Source of the DNA: Rhina ancylostomus
Lineage: Eukaryota
Assembly: GCA_030265395.1 (NCBI GenBank)
Contig: JARFYF010000112.1
Coordinates: forward strand, 62,910,764 to 62,974,763
Direction: 5' to 3'
DNA: 64,000 bases
A program made the position numbers and the translations under genes. Below are positions 3,050 through 64,000 of this stretch, one piece after another. The notes under the pieces are model-generated. The model did not search any database. It saw nothing but the letters and a program-made list of their open reading frames with translations, and had not been told where the DNA came from. Every line of letters begins with the position of its first letter. Positions within the stretch are counted from its first letter, which is position 1.

Positions 3050-3385
3050 GACATGCCCAGCCTGACTTGTTGCATTTGGCAACTCCCACATTCTTCTGTC
3101 TATGTCCTCACTCTGTAATTGCTCCCATTCATTCATTGATCAGATAATCTTGTTTACAATTTACCCCCCACGGTCACCCCAGTTTTACCCTACCAGAGAT
3201 ATCTCCCTTCTCCCACACTCACTGCAGTTTAACAAACTTCTTATGTCTCCTTCCCAGTTCTGATAAAGGGCCTTTGACCTGAAATATTAATTGTTTTCTC
3301 TTCTGACAGGTGCAGCCTGATCTGCTGAGCATTTCCCACATTTTCTGTTATATTTTAGATTCCAGCATCGACAGTGCTATTACTT
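3050..3385 (+). mobile_element. Penelope-like element terminal remnant with decayed hammerhead motif (3255-3293)
   Basis: cagttctgataaagggcctttgacctgaaatattaattg followed by gtgcagcctgatctgctgagcatttcc...ttccagcatc; same terminal family as 10118 and 61993. Confidence 0.7.
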
Positions 3386-6782: not shown

Positions 6783-7742
6783 CACAGGGTGGTAATAAAG
6801 GGTTGTTTTTCAAATTGGAGACCTCTCGCCAGTGGTGTACCACAGCGATCAGTGCTGGGTTCCTTGTTGATTGTCATATATATCAATGATTTAGAAGAAA
6901 ATGAAGGTGGCATGATTAATCAGAATGCAATGACACCATAAATTGTGATACAGTTGTCAGTGAACAAGATTGTCTAAGGTTACAACAGGATCTAGATTAA
7001 CTGGGAAAGTGGGCAAAGGAATAACAGATGGAATTTAACTCAGACAAGTGTAAAGTGATGAATTTTGGGATGTTAAACAAGGACAGGACATACACAGTGA
7101 ACAGCAGGGCCCTGGGGATGCTTGTCTTCATCAGTCAAGGTATTGAGTACAGTAGCTAAGATGTCATGTTACAGCTGTACAAGGTACTGGTGAAACCACA
7201 CTTGTAGGATAATGTGAAATCCTGGTCATCACAGCAACAAAGTGATTAAGCTGGAGGGGGTGCAGAAAAGATTCACAAGTTCGTTGCTGGGACTGGAGGG
7301 CTTGAGTTATAAAGAGAGACTGGAGGAACTGGGAGTGCTTTCCCTGGAGTGAAGGATGCTGGTGGTGACCTTATGGAGGTAAATAAAATCATGAGAGGGA
7401 TAGTTAAGGAAGATAGTCATAGTCTTTTTCCCAGGGTAGAGAAGTCTAAAACTAGAGTGCATAGGTTTAAGAGAGGGGAAGGATTTAAAGGGGACCTGAG
7501 GGGAAATTTTTTTCCACACAGAGAGCAGTGGGTATATGGAATGAGCTGTCAGTGGATGTGGTGGAGGTAGGTACAATAACAATGTTTAAAAGAAATTTAG
7601 ATGGGTACGTGGATAGGAAAGGTTTAGAAGGATAAGGTCAAATGCAGTTAAATGGGACTAGCTTAGGTAGGCAACTTTATTGACTTGGTGAGTTGGGTTG
7701 AAGGGTCTTTTTCTGTGCTGTATAACTTTATGACTCCATGAT
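6783..7742 (+). mobile_element. CR1/HER1 LINE 3' fragment (decayed RT and 3' UTR)
   Basis: SGVPQRSVLG, YINDLEE, GKWAKE*QMEFNSDKCKV, GDLMEVNKIMRGIVKEDSHSLFPRV; ends tataactttatgactccatg. Confidence 0.9.
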
Positions 7743-8099
7743 TCAAACAAAATAAATTTTGTAATTTACTATTTAACTATACATTTTATAGCTAAAATAC
7801 TTTTGAAAAATATATCACTTCAGCAATCTTTATTATTTTACTTAATAAAAACATTAGGGTCAATTTACGAAGATTTGAATAAACTGTAAACTAGGCAAGC
7901 AATGCTCCACAGGTATACAACAGCACAACAGGCAAATAACATTACTGAAGGTTAACAATGCCATCAGAGGCAAGCAAGTGATCTATCTACAAAAGTATTC
8001 TCGAAAGGCAAACATGAAAATGCCACCTTGTTACCAGAAGAAAAATGCTTTTTGCAACCTACACAGATTGGCTTTACTGACAAAAATTTTACCACTAAC

Positions 8100-8262
8100 C
8101 TTTTGGTAAGCCTTAGTCTCTGAAGCATGAGCATCTTCCTGATTCCTTAGCACCTTCTGGGTTTCCAGGTTGAGTGCCTGCAGCTGCCGGATGATTTCAG
8201 CTTGTTGGGCTGCATGCTCAATGCTTTCTTTGTACAAGCCTTGCAAGTCCAGTAACTCCTTC
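8100..8262 (-). CDS. CNTLN: Internal coding exon of centlein (centrosomal coiled-coil linker protein), likely orthologue of human exon 7
   Basis: Acceptor tttatcacacag|G and donor AAG|gttagt; 163 nt, phase 2 to phase 0. Translates (R)KELLDLQGLYKESIEHAAQQAEIIRQLQALNLETQKVLRNQEDAHASETKAYQK, closely matching recalled human centlein KELQELQNLYKQNSTHTAQQAELIQQLQVLNMDTQKVLRNQEDVHTAESISYQK. Confidence 0.93.
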
Positions 8263-9034
8263 CTGTGTGATAAATTTATGAATTAAATATAAACAAGTTT
8301 ATTGGCGTTTTTGTAGAAGCACGATTGCTAAAAGTGCTGATGGTCAATTGGGAACCCTACATTGAGTGTTTTTGATGTCACAATCAGACAGATTTGAAAA
8401 CAACAAGTCATTCACTGCTTATATTTTTTTATATAAACCTCAAAGCAATGTGCTTTGAATCAATTTAATTGGCTGAATCTTTGAAAATCATTACATGGAC
8501 AGAAACTTCAGATTTACATGGATCCTATATTGTTCCTTTTAGGTACCCATTAATTTTATCAAAGTAAATTTTGATCATTAATAAGGAATTTTAAAAATTG
8601 ACAATAACCCCACAAAATGCAGTCATTACCTTAGCCACACCACCTTCAAAAATTCAGCAACAACTTGCCTTTTCAGAAGTTACCATTCAGGGGGCTTTAT
8701 CCTTGGAGCTCCAATCTTTTGCTGGATATTTGTCATACTGATCCAGATTTTGTTATGTCAGGCATCTTCTACCGTCTGTCATTAGACAGACCTGTCCTTG
8801 CATGTTTAGATTTTTAAATTCCTTTGTAGGGGATCTTGCTAAAAGTGTAAGTTGATAACATTGTAGTGAGGAAAATATGCATCATGGATCTGAGCTAACA
8901 GGAAATGCAACTGGGTTTCTCCATAACCAATCTGGATGCACTGAATGAAGTTCAATCAGATACAGATTGAGAAATAAAGAGGGAGAGAAGGAATGGAAAG
9001 AAAGAGAAGAAAAAGTAAAAATAAATTGAAAAGC

Positions 9035-10180
9035 AAACCACTGTAGCTGTTGGATATCTGAGATGAAAACAGTAAATGCTGCAAATACTCAGCAGTTCAG
9101 GCATCATCTGTGGAGACAATGTATTAGGTTGATAATATTTCATTAAAATTAGGAAAAGCAGGAGGACAAAAAAGATTTAAGTTGCAGAGAGAACAATAGG
9201 TAAGAACCCTCAAATCTCTATCTGTTCCATCTTCCACACCAGTCCCCATCCCCTCTCCTCTCCACTCAGAGCAAATTTAGGGTTCCCCTTACTCTCACTT
9301 TCCATCCCACTTGTCTTCACATCCCATTGATCATCCTTAGTAACATCTTACACCTCCAACAGGATATATATCACTAGTCGAGTATTTCAAAGGACTTTTC
9401 TCACCAGGACATACTGGTTCTCTTCATCTCCATCAATACCCATTCCCTCTTTTACTGCACCCACGGGAGCTGAACACTTGCTCTTCTTTCTCCTCCCTCC
9501 CCATCCTTCAAGGACCCAAACACTCCTTCCAGGTGAAACAACAATTCACTTATACTTCTCACAATTCAGCATGTTGGACTCAGTGCTCATGATGTAGTCA
9601 CTGTAGAAACTGATGCAAAGTGGGTGACCACACCTTCCAGCAAGCTTCCTTTCCTTTTAATTTGCTACAATACCCTGAGATTCCAGTTACTAATCATATT
9701 AATTCTCCATTTCACTTCCATTCAGGCCTGTTTTTGGCTTCCTATGTTATTCCAATAAAGCTCAATGTAATTCAAGGAAAATTCTCATCTTGCAGTTAGC
9801 CACAGTATAGCCATTCAGAGAACATTGAATTTTAGATTATCAGCCACGTTGTTTCTCACACTTCCAACATATAGTTTTACCTCTCTTCTTTTCTGGTAAA
9901 TTCAGATTTCACTTATCTTTCTATTTACACCTGCAAGAAACATTGCTTCTGTTATTCACTTGTCCTTACCAACCTCTTTGAACCAATGCCATTACCACCA
10001 CTTGAGTCACTCACTTTCTCCCAGTGGCTCCATTCTGTCAAAGACCTTCTCTTTGGCTCTCTACTTCCCTCCTCCCTTTGCCTGCAGTTTAAAACATTTT
10101 TTATCACTCACATTTTCCAGTTCTGATGAAAGATTATCAATCTGTAATATTAATTGCTTCTCTCTTCACAGGTCCTCCTG
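9035..10180 (+). mobile_element. Decayed Penelope-like element: inverted terminal segment (9035-9195, minus), GIY-YIG-region remnant, and terminal repeat with hammerhead motif
   Basis: ccaaacactccttccaggtgaaacaacaattcact and the catattaattctcc..tcacttccat region parallel the PLE endonuclease remnant at 62460-62628. The terminus resumes at about 10554-10640 after a SINE insertion. Confidence 0.7.
10118..10156 (+). ncRNA. Minimal type I hammerhead ribozyme motif, probably inactivated (GUAA instead of GAAA)
   Basis: CAGTT-CTGATGA-A-AGATT(ATC)AATCT-GTA-ATATT-AATTG: stem I, intact CUGAUGA box, perfect 5-bp stem II. Confidence 0.55.
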
Positions 10181-10184
10181 ACCT

Positions 10185-10553
10185 CTGAGTCATAGAGAGA
10201 TATAGCATTGAAACAGGCCCACACTGACCATCAACCACCCATTTTACACTAATCCCACAATAATCCTTTTTTATTCTTCCCACATCCTCTTCAACTACCC
10301 CCGAACTATCCCCTCCACCCCCGAATCTACCACTCACTTACACACGAAGAGCAATTTACTGTAGCCAATTAACCTATTAACCCCACACATATTTGGAACA
10401 TGGGAGGAAAGGGGAGCATCCAGACGAATCCCAGGGAGGCACCCAGAAAAACGTGCAAACTCCATGCAGACAATACCCAAAGTCAGGATTGAACCCAGGT
10501 CTCTGGCACTGTGAGGTAGTGGATCTACTAGCTGCACCATTTGTACCACGCAA
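10185..10553 (-). mobile_element. HE1-type V-SINE (tRNA-derived head, V domain, HER1 LINE-like tail)
   Basis: Minus strand: tggtgcagctagtag...ctcacagtgccagagacctgggttcaatcc (A and B boxes), tgcatggagtttgcacgtt...tttcctcccatgttccaaa (V domain), tail gggcctgtttcaatgctatatctctctatgactc. Confidence 0.88.
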
Positions 10554-11984
10554 ATATTTGAGCCCAATTTGCCAAGTATTTCTCGCATTTTCTGTTTTTA
10601 TTTTTAAAAATATTTCTAATTTTAACTTCTGGCATTTTTAAAATCTCCAACACTCAAAATCTGAAGTAATGAAATTCCATAATCATTACAGTCAACTTTC
10701 AATGCCAGAAAGATTGACTGACAGTAATCAATGCTCATCATACCGTTCACAGGGTACTTAGACTGAAATGAACAGGATTTAAAATTTTGTTGAGTTTAGT
10801 TTATATCTACCAAGAAAATAAGCCAACCTCATGCACTTCAATAGTGAGGATAAAATTAGAGGGATGCCACAACTCAGACAACAGTTTTTGTACATCTGCA
10901 TTTAACCACAGATCTACCCCTTGCACCATTTACCCATAAATAATGGCATTCATTTGAAAGGATGTTCTGGGTATACATAACTTTTAAAAATCCATTTGAC
11001 GCCAGACCACAGATCTCAAGAATGTCTTTGTTTCCCATCAAACATTAAAGCATATGTTTAAATCTCCAGTGGAAAGCATGTACACGTGCCTCACATGTAT
11101 GAACTGTAGTCTCTGCACTCCCTTGGGATACAAAGATACATAACTCTTCCTTGTCCCAGAGCAGCAGCATGGGAAATCAAGCATATTACTAAAGGTACGC
11201 AGTATCCAGCTGATAAAGTAAATGCCTAACATAACTGAAAAACAAACCTAAAAGCTAGTGATAAGCATCAAGCAGTGAATAAATAACAACCATTAAATTA
11301 GAGAATGCAGCTAGTGTTTTGCATCAAGATTCACTTTGCTCTTTCACTATCTCCTCCAAGCAAATGTCTATTCTATAAGAAAAATAGAAAAGGACTTGGC
11401 CAAAGAAGGAAATGTCAAAAGTTAATGTTGGTATTAAACCATGAGGAATGGCAACAAGAAATTTTAAATCATTTTAATAACTTCTTTAAACACAATTTTT
11501 CATGATCAAAACAATTCTAAACAGTCGCCAAAGCCTGCAGATAGCAAGGAGTTTTTTTTTTCAAACTTGCTTCTGGCCATCATAAAGCTCAAAGAACCAA
11601 GAAACCAACAAAACTGTTTAAACAAGGAAATTTGACCAAGGCATGAAACTTTAAGTGCATTCTGGAAACTAACTGAAAGTTTTAAAAGCTGACCAGGACA
11701 CATTAAATATGGCCATATTACAGCAGTTTATCACCACTGCTGCTGAGTACATTAAATGAGTAGCTGATAAATGTATTCCGAGCTAGTTGTCACACGTTCC
11801 TTTCTTGTGACTACACAAACTGCTAATCACCCCAGTGAACATGACTGGATAGATTCCAATATGGCTCTTGGCCACACTTCCCACCCAAATCTTATTCAGA
11901 CATCGTTTCATCTTAATCTCACATCTTTTCAAAACTGAAAATGATGGGACAGAGTCCAAGATAGCAACAAGCAGACTTCCCTTT

Positions 11985-13147
11985 TAGAACATAGAACAGT
12001 ATAGCACAATACAGGCCCTTCGGCCCACCATGTTGTGCCAACCTTGAAACCTCGCCTAAAACTGTCTAACCCCTTCCTCCCACGTATCCCTCTATTTTAA
12101 ATTCCTCCATATGCTTATCTAGTAATCTCTTGAATTTGACTAATGTACCTGCCTCCACCACCAGCCCAGGCAGCACATTCCATGCCCCAACCACTCTCTG
12201 GGTAAAAATCCTTCCTCTGATAGCTCCCTTGAACTTCCCACCCATTACTTTAAATCCATGCCCTCTTGTACTGAGCATTGGTGCCCTGGGAAGGAGGTGC
12301 TGGCTATCTACTCTATCTATTCCTCTTAATATTTTGTATACCTCGATCGTGTCTCCTCTCATCCTCCTTCTCTCCAAAGAGTAAAGCCCTAGCTCCCTTA
12401 ATGTCTCTTCATAATGCATACTCTCTAAACCAGGCAGCATCCTGATAAATCTCCTCTGCATCCTTTCCAATGCTTCCACATCCTTCTTATCATGAGGCGG
12501 CCAGAACTGGGCACTATACTTCAAGTGTGGTCTAACCAGAATTTTACAGAGCTGCATCATTACCTCGCGGCTCTTAAACTCAATCCCTCAACTTATGAAT
12601 GCTAACATCCCATGAGCTTTCTTAACTACCCTATCCACATGTGAGGCAACTTTCAGGGATCTGTGGATATGGACCCCCAGATCCCTCTGCTCCTCCACAC
12701 TACCCAGAATTCTGCCATTAACTTTGTACTCTGCCTTGGAGCTTTTCCTTCCAAAATGTACCACCTCACAATTCTCCGGATTAAACTCCATCTGCCACTT
12801 GTCAGCCCAGCTCTACATCCTATCAATGTCCCTCTGCAATCTTTGACAATCCTCCACACCATCCACATCACCTTTGTGTCATCTGCAAACTTGCCAACCC
12901 ACCCTTCCCCCTCATCCAAGTCATTAATAAAAATCACGAAAAACAGATGTCTCAGAACAGAGCCTTGAGGGACACCGCTAGTCACAGCCCTCCAATCTGA
13001 ATGCACTCCCTCCACCACAACCCTCTGCTTTCTACAGGCAAGTCAATTCTGAATCCACACGGCCAAGCCTCCCTGGATCCCTTGCCCTCTGACCTTCTGA
13101 AGAAGCCTACCGTGTGGAACCTTGTCAAATGCCTTACTAAAATCCAT
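11985..13147 (-). mobile_element. CR1/HER1 LINE, about 1.16 kb 3' fragment, relatively young
   Basis: [74 protein letters not shown] across three frameshifted ORFs. Confidence 0.95.
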
Positions 13148-14119
13148 TATAAAATAACATCTAAGATTATTATCCATCTTAAAGTTAAAATAAGAAAGAT
13201 ATTTGCTAATTCACACAACTGCTGAGACTCTGCTGACTTTTTTTTAGTAGAACATTTGTCAAGGCAGCAGATTCTGCAACATAATATGTGAAGTTCAAGG
13301 AAAATTTGAATTCCCTCCATCTTAACTGGACATTCTGTTGGTAGCCACCGATATGCCCCTGGGCAGACTTGCACCTGTTGCAAACCTCTGCATTTGTACA
13401 GGAATGAGAGAATTGGGATGGCATCATTCACTAAGCATGGTTGACAACTGGCCATCAGTCTCAGGGGTGAAGCATGAGTTGGGGAGTCTGTTTTGGTGCA
13501 GAGCTGCTCCATGACAATTTGGAATGGGCCGTGATCTGGTGCTGCTCAGTGTCTCCACTCTTATCATGGAAACACTCATTTTAACATTTGTTCAAACAGC
13601 TTCAGAAGTTGCCCAGCTTCACTTTCAGCTCACCAGACTCCTGCCTGCCTATCATTGATCTACTATTCCAAGGAAACAGTGGGTTCAATTGTATTGCATA
13701 AGCGAGTCTGAGACACAACTATGTTTGTGTTTTTCTTAGGCAACTATTAAACCCTCTGCTCCATTTGTTTTGCCTTTAATAAATAAATATAAAAGCTTGG
13801 TCCATTTTCTTGAAGAGTAATAATAACAGTGAAACAAAACTGCCAAAATATTATATTTGCTGGTGCCGGCAGCTCCAGTCATGTTTTACACCCAGGCCCC
13901 TGCAGGTTGATACCACCCTGTGTGTTACAGAGTTGACTGGAAATTTTCTGGTACAACTTCTTGCTCTAGTACATTCAAATCACCATGATGACTCACAGTT
14001 ACTGATTTACATTTATATACTTTTCCTGATAAAGCAAAGCACATGGAGCCATTTCATGAAATCTGGTAGCCCTTACATTTGGAAATATGGTAACCATTCT
14101 GTGCAAAGCAATCCTCCAT

Positions 14120-14363
14120 AAGCAACATGAGGTAATTCACCTGTCAAACTTTTTTTATTGGTGATATTGTCATGGGCACAATACTGGTCATGGAAGATAG
14201 TAGAATTCTACCATCCACCTGAACCAGAGGAAGAAAGTTTAACATGTCCATTAAATTGTGACAGATGAACACAATTTCGGTACTCCACCAGGTAATGCTG
14301 TGTGCTCAAGATCTTATGTGGAACTCAAACCTATGTGTCCCTGACCCAGAGATGACAAGTATG
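14120..14363 (-). mobile_element. Decayed DeuSINE (SacSINE1/AmnSINE1-like)
   Basis: tccacctga..., gtttaacatgtccat and tgtgctcaag...gtggaactcaaacc...ctgacccagag match the reverse complement of the recalled Deu domain and tRNA-like head. Confidence 0.55.
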
Positions 14364-14715
14364 TAAAGACTCTTAAAGGGTTTGACAGGCTTGTTGCAGG
14401 GAGAATGCTTCCCTTGACTGAGTAGCCTGGGATAGGGGTCACAGTTTGAGATTTAGGGAGTAGCAAGTAATTTAGGACTGAGGTAAGGAGAAATTTCTTC
14501 ACTGAGAGGGTGATGAATGTTTGGAATTCACTAACCCATAGGGTTGCCAAAGCTCAGTCATTAAGTTCATTCAAAATAAAGATAGATTCATTTAAAGGGA
14601 TCAAGGGGTATGGAGATCCCAATGAAAAGTATCACTGAGGTAGAAAATCAGTCATGATTTTGGCGAATGATACAGCAGATGGCCTAGTCCTGCTCCTATT
14701 TCGTATGTTCTTCTG
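14364..14715 (+). mobile_element. CR1 LINE 3' fragment (older subfamily)
   Basis: KTLKGFDRLVAGRMLPL...FRTEVRRNFFTERVMNVWNSLT; tail tggcctagtcctgctcctatttcgtatgttctt. Confidence 0.85.
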
Positions 14716-15026
14716 TTTTAAAAAATAACTTAAGTCTGAAACAATTCACTCCTGTCTGCACAGAACAGGCTGGTACAAAATATGAGGACAAAGAGTACAT
14801 CAATTGCTTCCACAATTCAAGGAAACAGAAAAATGTACAGCAGGTTACTCAATATTCAGAAAAGAAAAATGTGAATGTTTTGTGAAGAGCCCTTCATCAC
14901 AGACCAGACCTTCAGATGCTTTGCAGAATATTCTGTTTTTCTTTCCAGCATTCTACATTTTTTTTAATCCCTGCATTAAGAATTTAGGACAAATATCTGA
15001 GAAACGTTGAGAAATGAATTTAAAGG

Positions 15027-15075
15027 ATTAATGAATGTTTAGTATTCAAAATATTAATGAATGTTTAGCATTCAA
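15027..15075. repeat. 23-bp tandem duplication (period 26)
   Basis: attaatgaatgtttagtattcaa / attaatgaatgtttagcattcaa. Confidence 0.85.
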
Positions 15076-16900
15076 GTGGTTAAACTATGTAATAGAGATG
15101 TTAATGAGAAGTTGTATGGACTTCGAAAACAGTAATGATCTTGACCTTTTGGGAGCTTTGCTGCCTCTTTCCCAAGGATAAATCATTGCTCATCGAGATA
15201 TCACTTTCCTGTATTATTCATGTCTGTGGAAAGCAAAGGTTTGAAACCTTCTGATTCACCATTCTTGTATTTCAGAGGACAGCAACCAAGAATTATTGTG
15301 AAAATGGAACAAAAGAAATGGGTTTGTAGATGGCCCCCAGCTGTAATCATACCTTTAAATCTTGCATTGTGAGAAACCAAGCAGTAAAAAGTGGGGCAAT
15401 TTAGAAAAGATCCTTTTTAAACCATTTAATTTTTTTCCAACAAAGAACAGAGCTAATGTGCTCATCCCTTCTATGGCATCTTAAATAATAATGGAAAACC
15501 CAGCATCAACAGCCATACTGTGTTCATAAAGTAGCTGTACCATTATACTTTGAGGGAAAAAAAGTTCATTATTCCACTTTTATCCACCTCTTTTCTTTCT
15601 CTAAATGATTCATAAAGAGCCAGCAAGTGAACACAATGCATATAAATATACACCAAAATAAATGTGATGTGGCATATTGGAAGTATTGAAATGTGATTCC
15701 TCGTGAACTGTTTTCATTAAATAGGGCATTTGAAAGGTACAGTTGCCATTGGCATGTTAATTTTGTTTTGTTACGCCACCATGGCTATCTTTTTGCCCAT
15801 TACCAGTTGTTCCATACACCACATTGATAACTGATTATATTTTAAAACCAGTTCAACAATGAGGCATTAGTAACTCTTGCTGTAAATAAGATGGCAATAA
15901 GCAGCTAATCATAGCAGAGCACAGCACCAGCCTGTGGCTCCATATTTTGAGGTGAAATTACAATGGAATTAAAGTGGATTATTTTTATCAAATGGGAATA
16001 AACTGTTAATTACCTCCCTGCTGTACCATCTTTTTCAAGGTTGCAACTGTTATTAGCTCTAGATTAAACTGTTGAATTAATTTCCCACTTACTTGCCATT
16101 TCCAGATTTTTTTTTAATAGAGTGTTTAATGTGAAAGTGTATTAAAGCACAAATTGTTGGAGGGATAAACAATTAGGAAATTGATTACAAACTTGTTTGA
16201 ATATAAAAGTATGATTGTGCCTTCAATTATTTTCTTCAAGGACTGGACATGTAATTAAAATTCTATTGAAGGCTTTTTCTTCAAGCTAATTTCTGAGAAA
16301 GCATTACATTCTAAACTTTCAAAGAAAATTATATTTTAAATGGGCTGCAGCACAGAGCTTTTCAATGCAAAGTATAGATGTGAGATTTGTGTGCATTGGA
16401 AGCAACATCTTATAACACAGTCACCATTTAAGTGACTGCTTTTGAAACATTCCTTAGGTAACCTGATTTGGCAAAAACATCTGCTCAGCTGCCCTGCAGT
16501 TCACTGGGTCATTGTCCTGCCCAGTGTGCTGCAGAACCAAACAGAAAAGAAAACTCCAAAGTTCATTCCTCAGTCTATAGAGGGAAAATCAGCCAGAAAA
16601 TCTCACCAAGTTTACTTTCAAGTTGCATATGGATGTGTAAGGGCTGATTGTTCAGAATCTGCACTCCCAGCTTAGTGAAATATAAACGTAGCCACTGTCA
16701 CTGTGTGGATGTTAAATTCTTCTCTCTCATTTAATAAGCTCACCAAGTATTTAAAGGCACTAACAATTTAATGTGGTATTCAGAAATATCAACAGAGTAA
16801 TATAGGAAAATAACTTTTGGTTACTATAAACACTTTCACTTCTGCAATATTTATTTCATGACTGTTGCAAAAATTCTGAATCAAATAATTTGACAGCCTT

Positions 16901-17076
16901 CGAGACACAAGAGACTGCACTTGCTGGTATATGGAGCAAAAAACAAACTCCTCGAGGAACTCAGTGGGTCAGGCAGCATCTGTGGAGGGGAATGTACAGT
17001 CGATGTTTAGGATCGAGACTCTTCATCTGAACTGCTTTTCCTTTGACCCACTGAGTCCGTCCAGCAGTTTGCTTAT
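16901..17076 (-). mobile_element. Small non-autonomous PLE-terminus fold-back element with 12-bp target site duplication
   Basis: TSD tttgacagcctt at 16889-16900 and 17077-17088. Internal inverted repeat caaactcctcgaggaactcagtgggtca / tgacccactgagtccgtccagcagtttg. Decayed hammerhead at 16997-17034. Confidence 0.8.
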
Positions 17077-19936
17077 TTTGACAGCCTTGCTTTGTGCTAG
17101 CATGTGACTAATTAATCTGTGAGTCTTCTCATTCCTGTATAATCTTCATTTACAGTCATGGTCAGAAAATCTTCCCTGCACTCTCCCACCATTGCTCCAC
17201 TGAACACTTCCTCCCATCTGAAATGCCTTTCAGCAGAGTGATGTAGTTGCTGCTGACCTATTTGCCAGTTCTACTCAAGGTGATGCAGGATTTGGCTTTC
17301 TTCAAGTAAGCTGAAAATATGGATGTCTCATCAATTGCTGATAAAACTTGACAGGAATTGTGCAAACTTGTCAATGGATAGGAAGCAAACAGTTCTTATA
17401 TCTACGACAACACTTGTTTCTGCTGTTCTAGCAAATTAAAAACAACCAACCAACTGCAGAAGAAAAGTGGTGTGTGTGTCTAAATTCTAACTGTGTTCCT
17501 TTAAGCTGTACCACACCACCTGCTGGAACTAAACCTGGATTCTCTACCACAGGAGCTGGCCCTTGTACAATTGGTGCACATCTCAAATGCTCGCCACTGC
17601 AGAAGGGAATGTCACAAGTGTATTTAGCAAGATGTGATTTGCACCTCCTGCCTCTGAATGGTCACTTCTACCTGAATGCATTGTTACAAATTCAATCTGC
17701 CACAGATACTTTGTCCAAAATCACAATTTCCTTGTCCCCTACCTGCCAGAGCAGACTTGCTCTGGCCAATTCTAACTCTATGAAAACAAAATCAGTGGTT
17801 GGAACAATAATCACCTTATAATTTGAATTAAATAACTATGTCTTTCACATTTATGCCCATCCTCACTTCCATATGTCTTTCTGGTGTTTTTGAAGGCAGA
17901 CTCAGGACAAGATGAATGAAGGTAGCATACAAATCCAAGATTTTTTAGTTGGTGGTGACCCACTCTCGGTTGCCCCCAAAAGCTGTCCATAACAAGATTT
18001 TGCAGCCTTTGAGGTGTGGGGTTTATTTTTCCCCCAAGTTAATTCATTCTGACATCGGCTTTGGGATCACTCAAGTCCAGGGGCAGTAAAGTGATCAAGC
18101 ACAGAGAAGAATTTTCAGACAACAAATCAGGAATTTACGAGCAGATTTCATCATTCACCTTCACAAAATTTTATATTGTGAATTGTGTTCTGAGATTGGG
18201 ATCTGCGTTTGGGATTTAGCTACACACAGGAAAATCATAAGTAAGCTTTTAAAAGATATTATTACTCATTTAAACCTATGCAATTGTTATTGTGGTATGA
18301 AGAAATTTGATATTCCTCAAGTATAAACCCAGTTTTTCAGGATGAAAAGAGTTGTTTGTAGTAATTATGAGTGTTAAATACTCATTTACACTTCATTTTA
18401 CAATACTTAACCCTTTCAAGACTTTTTTCAGTGACAACACGCAGCAAAACATTGAAATTCACATCAGTTCAGCGATTTCTATTAATTTCCTTCTGTAAAG
18501 AATTCAACATTGGACCAATGGAGATGCAGGATAGCACTCTCTGGCTGCCTGCATTTTGTGACATATGTGGGAACTCTCAATAAAATCATTGATCCAAGGG
18601 TACTAATGGCAGTTAGGTCAGAGGTTCAAATGTTTATATTTGACTGAGATGAAATATGAATATGGTGTTTTTAATTTGGGTGAAGATATGCTTTTCTGTT
18701 AAGTTAAAATCTGAAATTGTTTGTCAGTTTATCATTTTTTTAAACATTTAATAAATGTTCCATGGATCCAGCATTTATATGTCACAATGTTAATCCGGAG
18801 CAAACTCAGAGAACCCAAATGTGGCACACTGATAGAAGNNNNNNNNNNNNNNNNNNNNNNNNNNNNNNNNNNNNNNNNNNNNNNNNNNNNNNNNNNNNNN
18901 NNNNNNNNNNNNNNNNNNNNNNNNNNNNNNNNNNNNNNTCCAGCATGGAATCCATGTGCTGGACAACAAGGCATTAATGGAGCCAAATGAGAGCCAGAAC
19001 TCAGAACCATGACATCATATCCACAGCAGAATCAGCAGAATGATATGCAGGTTAATTGTTATCTGCCATTGAGAATGGATTTTTGAACCTTTGACAAAAT
19101 TATGCAGAGCTATTTATCAGCTGTAGAAAGTGAAAAAACTTGTACTATAATACAGTGTAATGAGAGAGATATTTGCTCATCATCAAAAACTCAGAGCCCT
19201 TAAGAAATATGATTGTGTTAGTAGGTGAAAAACTATAAGTAGAAATAAAATACCAATCAAATAATGAAACCTGACTTTACAGAGGGAAGGAAAAGGCAAT
19301 CATATTTTGGTAAGAACCATAAAAACATCATCATCTGGTATGTTTAGAGTTTGAGTCAAGGAACAGGTCTTGCAACTTGTAGAAAATGCAGTAAAAAGGA
19401 GAATTACAATTATGTACATTACTGAGGGGAAATCTATCTGCCTGAACTGATTATTTCATCCCCAGATTTGAATACAACTCTCAGATTCTATTGAAACAAT
19501 TGATTCTCTAAAGATTCGTTTCACCACCAAACAAAGTAATCAGTTCTGTTGGATATGGCCCTCTGGAACTGGGGACAATCACCCTGCTCTGTGCCTGAAT
19601 CGAATGAACAAAGTCTTCATGGGGTTTGGTGATTCTCACTTCTTTCATACTTACTGTATTAAAATAAAGGACCATCATATTCATTTTCATTTTTGTAAAA
19701 CTCTCCTTTGATTTAGAAAGGCAGGTAACTTGCGTTGTGCAAGTGATACAACATTGGGCTGGGTCCTTCCTGAACCTGGCCCACCAGCCGAACTTGTTGC
19801 TCAGTCTCCACACGCAGACACGGGGTTGGGGCGGGGGCTGGGGGTGCCAATTGAGCTGACCTTCTGCAACTAACAGCTGTCTAGCGAGCTGCAGCAGATT
19901 CCTTGTGATATGTTGGCCCAACCCTAGAATACCCCT

Positions 19937-24814: not shown

Positions 24815-25214
24815 ATTCACCTACCTGCTTCTGTCTCCCAATTACTCCCTTCCCCCACCTGCCTCCTTCTGCCCATCATCCCTCACCACTCTTCAGTCCA
24901 CCTATCACCTACAGTCCCGTCTCATCCCTCTCCCTCTCCTCTTTACACCAGCCATCGCCCCTCTATACTCTCAGTCCTGATGCAGGGTCTCGACCCAAAA
25001 CATCAACAATTCCTTTCCCCCCACAGATGCTGCTCGACCCACTAAGTTCCTCCAGCGGTTTGTTTTTTGATAAAAATAGGAAATGTTGAAAACACACAGC
25101 TGGTCAAGCAGCATCTGTAGAAATAGAAACAGAATTAAGGTTTTGGGTCCAAGACCCTCGTCTAACAGGAACAGAGAGAAAATATGTTAGTTTTCAGAGG
25201 CAGTGAAGGTGAGG
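24815..25214. mobile_element. Two Penelope-like termini in opposite orientation (plus 24815-25068; minus 25069-25214), each with a decayed hammerhead
   Basis: cagtcctgatgcagggtctcgacccaaaacatc...cacagatgctgctcgacccactaagttcctccagc, then aaatgttgaaaacacacagctggtcaagcagcatctgt...gggtccaagaccctcgtc. Confidence 0.75.
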
Positions 25215-34535: not shown

Positions 34536-35439
34536 GTAATGGGAGGATCAGATGTGATTTCATCCCATCCTACCTCATATTAAGTGGATCACTGACATGA
34601 TTAAATCTCACATTTGAATTCTGGACAGTTATTAGGAGGTTAGAGGGGGATGTATCCCTGTGGTACTATACCCAGCAGGGGACCAACACATTGGAGAGAG
34701 GAAGGAACTGGAGAAAACTGGCAAAAAATCTTCAAAAATAGTGCTTTACATTTAAAAGTGTTGATTATAAAAAAGATCAAAGTACCATTATAAAAAATAT
34801 ATAAATGAAGAACTGATATCAGAACTCTGAATCTGAGAATTCACTTTATGTAAGTTATTTGTTGTTATTTCTTATTGATAAAACCAACAACTCTCATCGC
34901 ATCTTGGGAGAAAATGGCAATATATAACTTGAGCAATGAATTAGAGTATCAAACAACATTGAATCTGAAACAATGTAACAACAAAGCTATATTGTTTTTT
35001 ATGAATACTCAAAAATCCAATATTCCAACCTCTACTGAAGCATAAAACCCCCTGAAGGACAAGCCTATTCAATCAATATTAGTTCATTTCAATTGAAGAG
35101 CTGTACAATGTCTGTGCTGATGATTTTATGGATTTCATTACCTGTTGGTGAGATGATTCCTGGCGATAAGAGACCTGGGACAGCATGGGGTATGATGCGA
35201 GAATTTTCTGGCAACGTGACACTCAGAGTACGTTTTGGGGGTCTTCCAGGCCTTGAGCTGTTGTGGAAGGAAAGAAGTTTATTTTAATTGTATTGGTTAC
35301 TTTCAAAAGAAACATATATTTTTAGATTGGTACCACTATGTCTCCCAATAACAACCAACTTATAGGACCATGAAATGTAAAACCATAAATCCTGCAGAAC
35401 ATCTACCAGAGCTTGTCTAGTCAATTCTACTTCTATTTC

Positions 35440-55944: not shown

Positions 55945-56047
55945 CTGACTATCCCTTTACCTCCGCAGATGCTCACTGAATCACTGAGTTCCTCCAGCAG
56001 TTTATTTTTTGCTCCAGATTAGAGCATCTGCAGTCTCTTGTGTCTCC
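55945..56047 (+). mobile_element. Penelope-like terminal fragment
   Basis: cagatgctcactgaatcactgagttcctccagcag...tttttgctccagattagagcatctgcagtctcttgtgtctc; reverse complement of 16901-16990. Confidence 0.75.
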
Positions 56048-57850: not shown

Positions 57851-59779
57851 GATGACAATGATGTGAATATGTGAGTAAACTTCATTTAAAAAAAACAAAA
57901 AAAGCTAAAGGGTTTTTGTAGTGCATTGGCAAGAGTTCTGTCCATCAAAACATAAAACTGTATTTTCAGAAGATTGAAGTTCCCACTTCCTAAAAATAAA
58001 CTTCACCAATGCATTGCCAGTGGTTGGGTGTGGAGATGGTTAGATGACATTTTGTGATTTACTGTTGCAGCAACTGAACTTCCACCACTAATATTTAACC
58101 AAGGCCATCACAAGTCGCTAAACAAACAGAATAACTGACTCATACTTCTACAGCAATGATTCTCTTCCTTCGTTACTTTGGTATTCAAATATTTAGAAAA
58201 CTTTTTTTTTGTTTAGCTAACGTATTTAGACTGGAATTAAAATCATTAAACCTGGTACTGTATTGAACATGTGATCAGAGCACACTCTTGTCCTATATGT
58301 TTCCACTATAACCAACACACCTATCACTTAAAAAAATTGTTTTGATCTTTATTTTAATATTTTCTTTTAAAGTAATCTTTAAGCTCCTTCCTAATTTAAA
58401 TTTTTGTCTTTTAATCTAGATTCCTAAAGTATGATGATTTTCATTGAGGTTCTGTAGTACAGAACTTGGTCATCCAACTCCTGGGCATTGAGTGTAAATT
58501 GATAACAAGCTATTCATCACAACCAAATGTGATCTTTACCTGATTTCCACATAGGTGTGTGTCCATTTGTAGATATTTGGCATGAATCATGAGTGACAAA
58601 GTTTTATTTTTTCTTACCTCACTCCAAGAATGGTGAGATGTAGTAATCCACCATCACCCATGCTCAGTTGTCTAACTTGAAAGAGATTGGTTTTCTAACA
58701 TTCAAGCTAGGGCTGTGTAGCTCAATCTGAAACCAAGCCAAACACTTACTAAAAGACTGTAGAATAATCCTGATTTCCAGTGAAAGCTTTTTGATAGTCA
58801 TATGTTTCAGAACTTCCTTGCTGACTTCAGTGATTTGTCACAGGAAGAATGAATTGTTGTATCATTAGTAACTTCTGATGTAGTCTACGGCAATTCAGGT
58901 TCCCCTTGTGATCGGAACAGTGTCAAATTTAAATACATCTGCAAATTCTGTAGAACTTTGAACTGATACAAACTTTTACATATATTCACTGGTTGAATAT
59001 CCACCTACACATCAGTGCAGTTACACCAGTCATATCTTTGCAAACAGGTCATTAACAACATCATATCAGGTAAAGTCAAACATCAGGTGTTTGCCTGTAT
59101 GGTTCTAGCAACATCAANNNNNNNNNNTGAAAAATAGGCAGAAATATACTGAATATTCATGTCCACATTCTCCATGCTAAGGAGAAAGCTATGCAGGATC
59201 ACAAATAGCCTTCTCAACATTTGGACACCATCAATGAACCATTGCCTAATTGTTCTTTTGCATCGTTCAAAGCTTTGCCTTTTTAACTTTCTTTAATAAA
59301 TCTTTAATTGATGGGAATGTGCATGAAAATTACTGACAGGGAAGTGTTCTAGTGGAGAATAAAAGCAGATGAAGCTGTCCATATAGTTTAATGTGTTACA
59401 TAACAAATCTCAGTTCATTCATTTTTAATAAAATCCATCTCCATTTTTAAAAGCTTTAGTTCATTAATACTGTTGCAGTTAATTCTTGCTACTTAAGACT
59501 ATACTTTGGAGGTTAACAAGTCATAAATGATACTGTCAATAATTCAACCAGTTAACAAGATGAGACGGTTGAAGGAGCTGGGCATTTCCAATGCTCCATT
59601 TGAAATCTTTAAAATAAACTAAGCAAATCCATAAAAGAAAATGTTCTACTTAAACAAATCCAGTATCTCACATTATTTAATAAGAACATAGTTTCTGCTT
59701 CTGTTTCGGCTCCTGGCCTTTGGATATCATTCAAGGAGTGAGGGTCTTTGCCTGATTTACAATTATACGTCATCAAGAC

Positions 59780-60070
59780 TGACCCAGGATCTGCTCAATG
59801 GCCTAATGTAGCCAGAGACAGCATTGGCCATACAATAGAGTCGGCCCAAGATTCAGCTCCTGGTCTACATTGTGTAAGCTGTTAGGGGAAAATTCAACTG
59901 GAGAAAAATAAGCTTGGATTCTTGACCACTATCCAGGTACTCAGCTGTGATGATCAAACAGAACTTCAGTTCACAAATGCAGTATGATGAGTTTGTCAAT
60001 GTATAATAAGTTCGTTAGTGCCATACAAGTATGTCCTTTGTGAGTCAACAGCTCCAGTACAGAAAACTGG
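59780..60070 (+). mobile_element. Very decayed SINE-like element; possible opposite-strand copy at about 27100-27235
   Basis: gctcaatgg...gccatac...cccaagattcagctcctggtctacattgtgtaagctg head-like segment; family not confidently assigned. Confidence 0.35.
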
Positions 60071-61992
60071 AAAGATGGAGAGCAAAGTTTCCATTTAGTA
60101 AAATAAATCATGTGTGGAGTTTTATACAAGATTTGAAAAGCATATAAAAACTACTGTGAGGTTTAATGTAGCCATTCATATTTTACATAAAAGAAAAGCA
60201 CAGTTCATGATTATCATTGACTGGTCCTATTCATTTTTAAAAGTACATGGGTTGAAACTTTGCTGCAAAGTCAAGTGGGATGAGGCAGGGTAAGACGTTA
60301 AAACTAAAAATCGTAAACTTAACCCATTCTGAATTCCAATTTTCATCTTTATTCTAGATTCCCAATCTGCAGCATGGGCAGCCAAATCATACCACAGGGT
60401 GGGCAATTAACTATTTAGTCAAGACAGGAAGGCTCACATGTGAGCTTCATTTTATAGGTTTAATCCCGGTTGGCTTGGCTTCTTGGTGTTGAGAAGCCTA
60501 GAATCTGAAGCAAACTCACAACAGCCGGGGAAAAGGTTAGTGCTTCGGCCCAGCCTCCCAAGCCGTCCATCATCTGCCCTCACACTGCCCCAAGACAAGG
60601 AGTAGACCCCCATCCCGGGACCCCAAAGCAACTCCACCACTATCACACTCCCACTAATAATAGCAAGCAAATTACCCTGGTTATAGTCTGCTCTAGAGTC
60701 ATTCCCTGCTGATTGGAAAGCAAGACTGTTAATCAGTCTGAGGTGAGAACCTGTTGAAGCAAAAGTAGGAACCTTACGAGTTAAAACATAGCATGCAGAG
60801 AACCCTAAACATCTGGATTCCACAACAGAAAAAAATACTACACAAACCACTTCTATCAAAATTGAACTCTGCATTTCTATAACAAATTTTTCCAATAAAA
60901 CAGAAGGCACTATATGATTTATTTTGAAGCCTACAAAACCATCTTTGGTGGCAATTATTTTACCTACAACTGAAATAATGTTTCAGTGCTCCTGTTGGCA
61001 CATGTAGTGACATCTCTGTTTATAGTGCATGCTTCTGAACATGGCTGCTTTATTGGCTCATAAAAAGTGGACATTACTGATTCTTCAATCACTGCATACA
61101 GATACTGTAAAATAAGCAGATGGTGGAAGGGAGGTAATAGGGAGACATCTGGACTCTGTGCTGCTTGTTTACTTTATCAGAATCGGAGTGAACAGAAAGT
61201 CAATCCAGTACATATTGCGTTCATTTATTAGCTCATTGATCACACCTACACGTTGCCCAAAGAGTATGGATTCAACCCATTCTTGTTGGAATTTACAGGA
61301 TTTACATTTGCACTACACTAAATGCAATGGTAGAATTATAGCATGTACAGTAGAGTATATTTTTTTTACTCATTCAGTTATCAGGATGTGGGCATTGCTG
61401 GCAAGGCTAGTATTTGTCACTCATTCCTAATCACCTCTGAACAAACAGGCTGGATGGGCCTTTTCATGGGACACTAAGGAGTCAACCATCTCATTCAATA
61501 ATCACATTGAACTTGGAGTGGAAAATGTTGGGAACCACTGTTTTGGCAGTAGTATTGCACAGCTGAAATTGCTTTCACTGGTAATTTTAACTAACAATTC
61601 TGAAAATGGACAGAATGGTAGTTCCTATAAATTGTAATGCTATCAAAAGTTGAATGTTGATAAGCAAGTGCCTTTGCAAAATACATTTTGCTTAGGCTCA
61701 CACTGATCTTTTGGAAAAATTATCAACAAAGTAATTTTACTTGAGACTGAGTGAACACAAGTTGGCAGCAAAATGCCCTTGGAAGCAATAATCAAAATTT
61801 TAAAAAGGTAGAGCAGCCTTTCGTTTCACAATGGAAATAATGTTCCACTTTCCACTGTCATACATTGATACATGACATCCTAAAATAGTTTGAACTGATT
61901 TTCTTTCTCATTGCAGGAAATTTTAAATCTTTCTCAACCACTTTATTTTGCTCAAGTCTAGTACTTTTGCAGAACACTAATATAATTCCAAG

Positions 61993-62628
61993 CAACACAC
62001 ACAAAATGCTAGAGGAACTCAGCAGGTCAGGCAGCATCTATGGAGGGGAATAAACAGTCAACATTTCGGGTCAAGACCCTTCATCAGGACTGAAAAGGAA
62101 GAGGGCAGAAGCCGGAATAAGGAGGTCAGGGGAGGAGGAGGACCACAAGCTGGCAGGTGATAACCGAGTCCAGGTGAGAGGGGGAAGGTAGGTGGGTGGG
62201 AGAGGGGGTTGAAAGAGAATGATGTGAGAAGCTGGGAGGTGACAGGTGGAAGAGGCAAAGGGCTAAAGAAGAAGGAATCCAATAGCAGAGGACAGTAGAC
62301 CATGGAATAAAAGGAAGGAGGTGGGGAATCAGAGGGAAGTGATGGTCAGGTCGTGAGGGCAGGGGGAATGGAAAGAGAAGGGGTGAAGGGGCCACGGGAA
62401 TGAGGAAAAACAAAAGGGCAGGTGGGGAAAAGAGGGAAACAGAAAGAAGGAGTTACCGGAAGATACAGGTTGGAGGCTACCAAGACGGAATATGAGGTGT
62501 TGCTCCTCCAACCTGTGTCTCGCCTCAACGTAGCAGCAGAGAAGGCCATGGATAGACATGTCAGTGTGGGAATGGGAAGTGGAATTTAAGTGGTTGGCCA
62601 CTGGGAAATCCTGGTTGTTGAGATGGAC
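61993..62628 (-). mobile_element. Penelope-like element 3' fragment: GIY-YIG endonuclease C-terminus, pyrimidine-rich UTR, terminal repeat
   Basis: DFPVANHLNSTSHSHTDMSIHGLLCCYVEARHRLEEQHLIFRLGSLQP; terminus catagatgctgcctgacctgctgagttcctctagcattttgtgtgtgttgc. Confidence 0.92.
62055..62092 (-). ncRNA. Minimal type I hammerhead ribozyme motif (PLE type), catalytic core intact
   Basis: CAGTC-CTGATGA-A-GGGT(CTTG)ACCC-GAA-ATGT-T-GACTG: perfect 5-bp stem I, CUGAUGA and GAAA boxes, 4-bp stem II with tetraloop, NUH triplet GUU. Confidence 0.75.
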
Positions 62629-63619
62629 ATATAATGCCAAGTGTATCCACTAATTTATTTTTAATATGCTCATTTATTTAATTGAGGACATTTCAGTCCA
62701 AGCCCATCATCAGAGATGAACCCACAAAGCCTGCTCAAGTATACCATAGGGTCTTCTCCATTGCTGAGCTTGGACCTTGGTTGAAATTTACTGGCAGGCT
62801 GCAGCTGATGAACAAGGTCTCTGTTGCAGAGTGATGCAAAACTATGTGATGTAAAAAGTGATGCAATCCTTTTACAGACCCAACAGCAATTGGAGTCCAG
62901 TGAGCAAGAGGAGGATGTAGATCCTGGGGTTGAGAACGAGCTGGAAATTGATTGCAGAAATGGAAGAAGCATTTACCCAGCCTCACGTAAGTAGTAAAAG
63001 AAATTAAGCTGCAATTATGAAACATCTTCCACAAGCACTGAGGATTCCAATTCATTTTTTTGGAGCAATTTCCACTGGTTAGGCCTCTCAACAACTGGGA
63101 AAAGTGGGGTTTACGGTCAGTTTGCATGCTCTGTCTAATTTTCCACAACAGTTGCAACTAGGATCCTACAAATGGTATTAGTCCCCCGTTTGCATATTGA
63201 GACAGTTTCTTGACTGTATGGGCAGGAAAAATAAGTGGTCATTTAAAGACCTGTTTGGTAACTGTATCAGACAGCCAAATTAGAGCATAAGTCCCACAAC
63301 CATTGCAAATTATTTTGGGGAGGTACAGGCAACCAGAAGTTGAAAATCCTTTGCAATGAGATCCAATAAGCTGTTATGATTTAAGGGTGTCAAGGCTAAT
63401 TGGTTACTATTGCAGTCAGCTCATCTGTGAGTCTCTCTCTTTATGAAGCTGGTCACTCGTAACTTGTCCAATCAATCTCATAGCTGGAGCCAGTTACATC
63501 CACACCACAAAGTTGACATGACAGGTATTTAATTTCCACAAGTGATGCCAATGATATTAATTTATCTGTTTTAATTTAAAGAGACAAATCCTAAAGGATT
63601 CACAACTACAGTCCATGTG

Positions 63620-63755
63620 GCAGGAAGTTGTTTTGTTGGCGCTGGAAGCGTGGTGACACTTATGGGCTGCACCAGAACACTCGATGCATAAGATGTATTT
63701 CACTGTGTGTTTTGATGTACATGTGACTAATAAAGAAATTCTGTCTTATCTTATT
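63620..63755 (+). mobile_element. Rex1-type 3' UTR fragment
   Basis: tttcactgtgtgttttgatgtacatgtgactaataaa followed by a (tctta)n tail. Confidence 0.65.
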
Positions 63756-63889
63756 TTGAAATCATGCAAAAAAAAATCTCCTGTGATGTCTTAAATTGTG
63801 AATTTGAATTACTAGATAAATTGAATTCTTCTTGAGCACAAAATAGCTCTGAATTAACAGGAACAGAGTGCCTCTGGCTGGATAACCAG

Positions 63890-64000
63890 TGTAAATATAA
63901 GCTGAAAATACTGGAAATACTCAATGGGTCAGGGAGCATCTGTGAAGGGAGAAGTAAAATTAACTCTTCACAATGAAGGGTCAAGAGCCAGAGAACCAGA
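63890..64000 (-). mobile_element. Penelope-like terminal remnant at the window edge
   Basis: gaaaatactggaaatactcaatgggtcagggagcatctgtgaagggaga. Confidence 0.65.

Follow-up and report, generated by a model that had tools for sequence, protein, structure and literature searches.

The window analysed here, a stretch of 64,000 nt from Rhina ancylostomus, carries on its minus strand, at 62055-62092, a 38-base motif of the minimal type I hammerhead class (min-HHR) that is known from Penelope-like elements (PLEs). Its parts are, in order, a stem I of 5 bp, the box CUGAUGA, an extra A, a stem II of 4 bp with a 4-nt loop, the box GAA, the letters AUGU, a U, and the closing strand of stem I; the scissile bond is predicted at 62060/62059. 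All of the core positions C3-A9, G12-A15.1, U16.1, and H17 are present, as are helices I and II, the extra base between positions 9 and 10.1, and the G10.1-C11.1 pair, while helix III and a loop I for tertiary contact are lacking. The minus-strand reading of an earlier note on this DNA, with stem I, both core boxes, stem II, and a GUU triplet, is exact in sequence, and its assignment to the minimal type I hammerheads of a PLE is borne out by core boxes, stems, and element context. When both strands of the whole 64 kb were searched with a minimal type I hammerhead descriptor, 62055-62092 was the sole match. The Rfam matches at E<=10 in 58000-64000 are five weak ones, none of them to a hammerhead. 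A canonical type I hammerhead was rejected on the lack of an Rfam hammerhead match and of helix III. Folding in a context of 91-351 nt gives stems I and II predicted pair probabilities of 0.82-1.0; the fold of the motif alone is modest (z -1.93, with 9 of 200 shuffles equally good).

The motif sits near the 3' end of a 5'-truncated PLE of 636 bp (61993-62628), which was delimited by alignment to other copies and runs on the minus strand from 62628 to about 61993. Two 13-bp AT-rich direct repeats flank it (61980-61992 and 62629-62641; 12/13 identical) and likely represent the target-site duplication of the PLE insertion; as a control, 3 matches in 400 random box draws reached 11/12, N-containing draws being skipped. 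Compared with the majority of the stacked copies, the element differs at 49 of 616 non-CpG columns (~8%), a value that is a floor because part of the comparison set was picked by likeness to the window. At 62467-62628 (minus strand, approximate limits), a C-terminal remnant of the PLE GIY-YIG endonuclease is found, with 61% identity over 74 amino acids to the end of P0121, a protein with reverse transcriptase (RT) and GIY-YIG. In proteins like P0121, from stingray and devil ray, a C-x4-C-x2-C linker and a GIY-YIG domain accompany RT motifs that were recognised by eye; P0121, P0122, and P0125 match the Pfam GIY-YIG family with E values of 5e-4 to 1e-3, slightly short of the curated cut-off, and the atlas matches also carry GIY-YIG. 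No Pfam family was found for the endonuclease tail of the window alone, nor for the relative copy L193; the tail was recognised as endonuclease by its homologues.

Within the family, the features of an endonuclease-bearing (EN+) PLE are seen, namely, RT followed by a C-terminal GIY-YIG domain, 5' truncation, and dispersed copies in high number. The C-x4-C-x2-C linker between RT and EN is seen in L193 and P0121 and is absent from the truncated window copy. A CX2-5CxxC linker is described as a mark of Neptune and Nematis PLEs (PMC8557442), and the family of the window copy has a linker typical of these groups. Among 150 scored matches, the nine with long open frames that were examined held no intact ORF, the frames being largely N-runs. 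That the motif lies in a PLE terminus, as had been claimed, is confirmed by the copy alignment, the element limits, and the endonuclease tail. In the 30 position-ordered copies L131-L160, a second motif within 1.5 kb is found on the same strand in three and on the opposite strand in nine, and 19 have none; inverted arrangements are reported to be typical of PLE insertions (PMC8557442). More decayed PLE ends of related families occur in the window at 3248-3329, 16943-17034, 24971-25063, 9074-9115, and 55960-56003, none of them with an intact core. Public stingray and devil-ray gene models (P0121-P0131) include pieces of PLE RT-endonuclease, and some PLE-derived models bear the name of a host gene, for example "mucin-2" and "divergent protein kinase domain 1C"; these are probable annotation artefacts.

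The host gene is DACH2 ("dachshund a"), which shows 100% identity over 147 amino acids to the sawfish protein; around the window, 11 of its segments follow one another in the proper order, all on the minus strand. Exon 2 (35140-35259, minus strand; amino acids 148-187, 100% identical to P0139) marks the 3' end of intron 1 and begins at 35259, 26.8 kb left of the motif; exon 1 ends 118.5 kb to the right of it. Because exon 1 lies to the right and exon 2 to the left, both on the minus strand, the motif is located by sequence on the sense strand of the ~145-kb DACH2 intron 1, a placement that depends on scaffold order in a fragmented assembly with at least one apparently misplaced piece in the gene; no 100-N run occurs between exon 2 and the motif. 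Transcription through the motif would take place with the DACH2 pre-mRNA. Head-to-head with DACH2 exon 1, reading frames are present on the plus strand (L045:955-1341 and L047:5161-5751), which we take to resemble CHM/REP1; no matching family for them was found in Pfam.

The earlier note had seen the motif on the sense strand of CNTLN and, given upstream CNTLN exons beyond 64000, within the CNTLN pre-mRNA. Of this, the sense strand of a long gene stands, and the gene has to be corrected. The window holds a lone CNTLN exon (8100-8262, minus strand; amino acids 232-286, AG/GT ends, 93% identity to sawfish centlein), which sits inside DACH2 intron 2 on a 12-kb piece (6783-18838) between two 100-N runs. 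Of 26 centlein matches in the genome, 25 are on scaffold C104 and only this exon is on C112; no CNTLN exon was found within 180 kb to the right or 200 kb to the left of the window. Since the 12-kb piece is bounded by 100-N runs, a scaffolding error is likely to have placed the exon in DACH2 intron 2. On C104, the 18 kb between the exons neighbouring the missing one gave no match to it and holds a 7-kb N-run (G000:C104:49334255-49341322), under which an original may be hidden, of which the lone exon may be a duplicate.

The 5' junction of the PLE insertion is bridged by contigs of organisms B and D (X2 record 16 and X4 record 31), and because contigs of both bridge it, the insertion predates the split of these two organisms. 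Bridging was counted for this junction only, as the relatives' contigs that are anchored in the unique flank end at 62018-62019, only 26-27 letters into the element and below the 31-letter rule. Next to the element, 45 bp outside it, lies a second, broken hammerhead-like relic (62673-62717, minus strand) with both core boxes, a broken stem II, and no stem I; it is present in organism B and absent from one contig of organism D.

To see the motif among its relatives, the genome was searched with a 35-letter pattern in which four CpG sites were left free, yielding 1630 matches, the window copy included. With the reversed control, 0 matches were obtained, and because 1630 exact family matches stand against none, the motif at 62055-62092 is a real copy of a PLE minimal hammerhead and not a chance likeness. 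The family form has four CpG sites, of which the window copy keeps that of C11.1-G12 and has TG at the other three, in loop II, in the palindrome, and at position 17. The proposal that an ancestral ACGU-C decayed by CpG transitions to AUGU-U is supported by this pattern. At 15.1-16.1, the ACGU of the family form (L137) is a true palindrome, and the AUGU of the window copy pairs with itself only via two G-U wobbles. Wobble-compatible AUGU is found in 481 and pairing-breaking ACAU in 541 of the 1630 matches (p=0.065); as AUGU does not exceed ACAU, no selection for G-U pairing is seen in the family. At the G12 site, G12A is the commonest state (613), followed by intact CG (538) and TG (479, by subtraction). 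This exchange slows hammerheads 500-fold to about 1e6-fold (PMC2553840), and since it is the commonest state and not a rare one, no selection for catalysis is seen in the family either. Loss of the general base G12 and the states of the palindrome are what neutral decay predicts. The state of the window copy is shared by 37 copies (first 35 letters the same apart from the loop CpG). In 30 columns, the window motif has 0 non-CpG changes, for which the probability at the copy's own rate is 0.08-0.25; it is slightly clean, not unusual, and its conservation is within neutral expectation.

Relics were also counted in a sample of 947,334 non-N bases in 101 pieces (the window, 38 flanking pieces, 2 from C104, and 60 at round coordinates). 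It gave 119 matches, of which, excluding the window copy, 52 cover the core, 6 keep both boxes, and 2 pass every criterion. This amounts to ~55 relics per Mb, or of the order of 1e5 per genome, and to roughly one "intact" motif per seven 64-kb windows, a rough figure based on two events. In this sample, sibling PLE lineages carry one and the same core change in many copies, U4A in 14 and A9C in 15 of the 52 relics, and the letters downstream are characteristic for each change. Judged from these sequences, parent elements may have multiplied although their hammerhead cores were changed or dead, in line with reports that insertion does not require cleavage.

PLE min-HHRs are devoid of helix III, and it has been proposed that two of them supply it by pairing with each other (PMC4209133; review PMC6765202); cleavage was undetectable for single motifs and low for dimers (PMC4209133). 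For the double hammerhead, nearest-neighbour energies, which ignore core tertiary structure, are predicted as -19.3 kcal/mol for intact ACGU, -14.4 kcal/mol for the AUGU of the window, -17.2 kcal/mol for the mixed pair, and -12.4 kcal/mol for ACAU; two self-closed monomers of the window copy are at -21.8 kcal/mol. The AUGU homodimer is accordingly predicted to be 4.9 kcal/mol weaker than that of ACGU and ~2 kcal/mol better than that of ACAU, and a heterodimer of the window copy with an intact copy would lose only 2.1 kcal/mol. In DACH2 intron 1, nine relic matches were found, six of them sense; only 62055-62092 fits the descriptor, and no other intact motif was found in the intron as a dimer partner. 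The relic at 62673-62717, ~600 bases upstream, was rejected as a partner, its stem II being broken and its stem I strands mismatched. The self-pairing of AUGU through tandem G-U pairs that had been put forward would be possible in the model, at a cost of about 5 kcal/mol compared with ACGU. The further step to retained activity finds no support, given the lack of enrichment of AUGU over ACAU, the weaker predicted dimer, and the failure to find an intact partner in the intron.

By its sequence, the window motif belongs to the min-HHRs of metazoan PLEs, with a degraded palindrome. It agrees with those described by Cervera and De la Pena in 2014 (PMC4209133) in type I order, CUGANGA and GAAA boxes, the extra base between 9 and 10.1, the G10.1-C11.1 pair, a 5-bp helix I, the absence of helix III, a 15.1-16.1 stretch that is palindromic in the family form, a location near the PLE end, and the prevalence of single dispersed copies and truncated elements. 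It departs from them in the decay of the palindrome to AUGU and of the site to GUU, and in being a single copy without a second pLTR; its helix II has 4 bp, compared with 7-8 bp in the schistosome families of the same study. Cartilaginous fish are not named in the consulted text of that paper, and the literature search made gave no description of a Penelope hammerhead from a shark. In Anolis, the Poseidon element PAc, described by Frangieh et al. in 2024 (PMC11167929), likewise is a vertebrate EN+ PLE with a hammerhead and an AT-rich target, but PAc is intact and of the Penelope/Poseidon clade, and the window copy is a 636-bp remnant from a family with a Neptune/Nematis-type linker. Animal non-LTR retrozymes also possess a PLE-related type I hammerhead and, in vertebrates, the dependence on dimers (PMC7229834; bioRxiv 10.64898/2026.07.22.740005); one chondrichthyan genome was sampled for them according to the latter preprint. 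In contrast to the non-coding tandem repeats of retrozymes, the window holds a single copy with a coding remnant of the endonuclease and target-site-like repeats, and a non-LTR retrozyme was rejected on these grounds. In amniotes, certain intronic hammerheads of the canonical kind have tertiary contacts and are deeply conserved; the window motif differs from them by its missing helix III and its repeat-like decay. What it has in common with them, for example with that of the RECK intron (PMC6155905), is a sense-strand position within an intron of a vertebrate.

Summarizing, the motif is the min-HHR of an old, 5'-truncated PLE copy that lies sense in DACH2 intron 1, and it is very probably an inert passenger in neutral decay. 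In an active parent element, two motifs would pair via the ACGU palindrome and so build the helix III that each lacks alone; each motif would lend its core and stem II for cutting the other after GUC, probably with help of the element's protein. The window copy would be transcribed with the DACH2 pre-mRNA and fold stems I and II on itself; with no helix III, no intact partner in cis, and weaker pairing through AUGU, any cutting ahead of splicing would hence be too slow to matter. The intactness of its core would be owed to its few mutations having hit other places. Even hammerheads of the canonical kind, in a zebrafish intron, reduced mRNA by less than 3-fold, and only an engineered fast one reached 20-fold (PMC11856399). 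Counting against inertness are the intactness of all catalytic residues and both stems, an absence of non-CpG changes that is somewhat better than average, the predicted advantage of AUGU over ACAU and small loss in the mixed dimer, the age of an insertion shared with related species, and the ~27 kb before exon 2, which would leave time for a slow cut. GUU, too, is listed as a cleavable NUH site, GUC and GUA being fastest (PMC3138052); a quantitative rate of GUU versus GUC was not found in the literature. It is unlikely that the motif has stayed chemically competent and is slowly cut in trans, by ACGU/AUGU pairing with the RNA of an intact element or another copy and with the PLE protein as chaperone, in a small share of the DACH2 pre-mRNA and with no selected function. 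The intact core, the small predicted heterodimer penalty, and the 538 of 1630 copies that keep C11.1-G12 would be in keeping with this, and protein-assisted cleavage has been shown for the lizard PLE, the hammerhead of which cleaved only with the element's protein (PMC11167929). However, no intact ORF was seen in the nine long open frames checked, largely N-runs, the concentration of a nascent partner would be low, and the study of the lizard element saw no RNA-seq ends in vivo at the hammerhead site (PMC11167929). For insertion in vitro, the lizard hammerhead was not required (PMC11167929).

Co-option of the copy as a regulatory intronic ribozyme of DACH2, kept by selection, must be rated as highly improbable. 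The sense position within the first intron of DACH2, a developmental regulator, the 0/30 non-CpG changes, and the insertion shared with organisms B and D speak in its favour, and the neutrality of the family as a whole is compatible with selection on one copy. Set against this are the decay of three of the four CpG sites, two of them at functional places (palindrome and position 17), the lack of helix III and of a loop I for tertiary contact, the 37 copies in the same state, and a conservation within neutral expectation. The chance that the motif belongs to the CNTLN pre-mRNA after all, its own piece being misplaced, is close to negligible: the apparently misplaced CNTLN exon in the window and the many 100-N joins of the assembly would allow for it, but 25 of the 26 CNTLN matches are on C104, with none in the flanks searched, and the motif is separated from the CNTLN exon by DACH2 exon 2, to which it is joined without a 100-N run.

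As an inert passenger, the motif is one more copy in a class already described, and its gene assignment is corrected from CNTLN to DACH2; it belongs to a very large number of decaying copies and is most likely inactive. The lone CNTLN exon points to a probable error of scaffolding. The genome-wide counts provide a clean neutral baseline, according to which both G12 and the palindrome are freely lost from min-HHR copies in the genome. Very unlikely, yet of wider consequence, is the idea that sense-strand min-HHR relics are latent cut sites, at which the RNA and protein of an intact element, once expressed, would provide in trans what the double hammerhead lacks, so that host pre-mRNAs would be cut, in this case within DACH2 intron 1. 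If true, such trans or protein-assisted cutting of intronic relics would give retrotransposons a new way of acting on host pre-mRNA and would be relevant to the role of PLE hammerheads; through the latent cut sites, the output of ray genes, possibly thousands of them, would be tied to the activity of retrotransposons.
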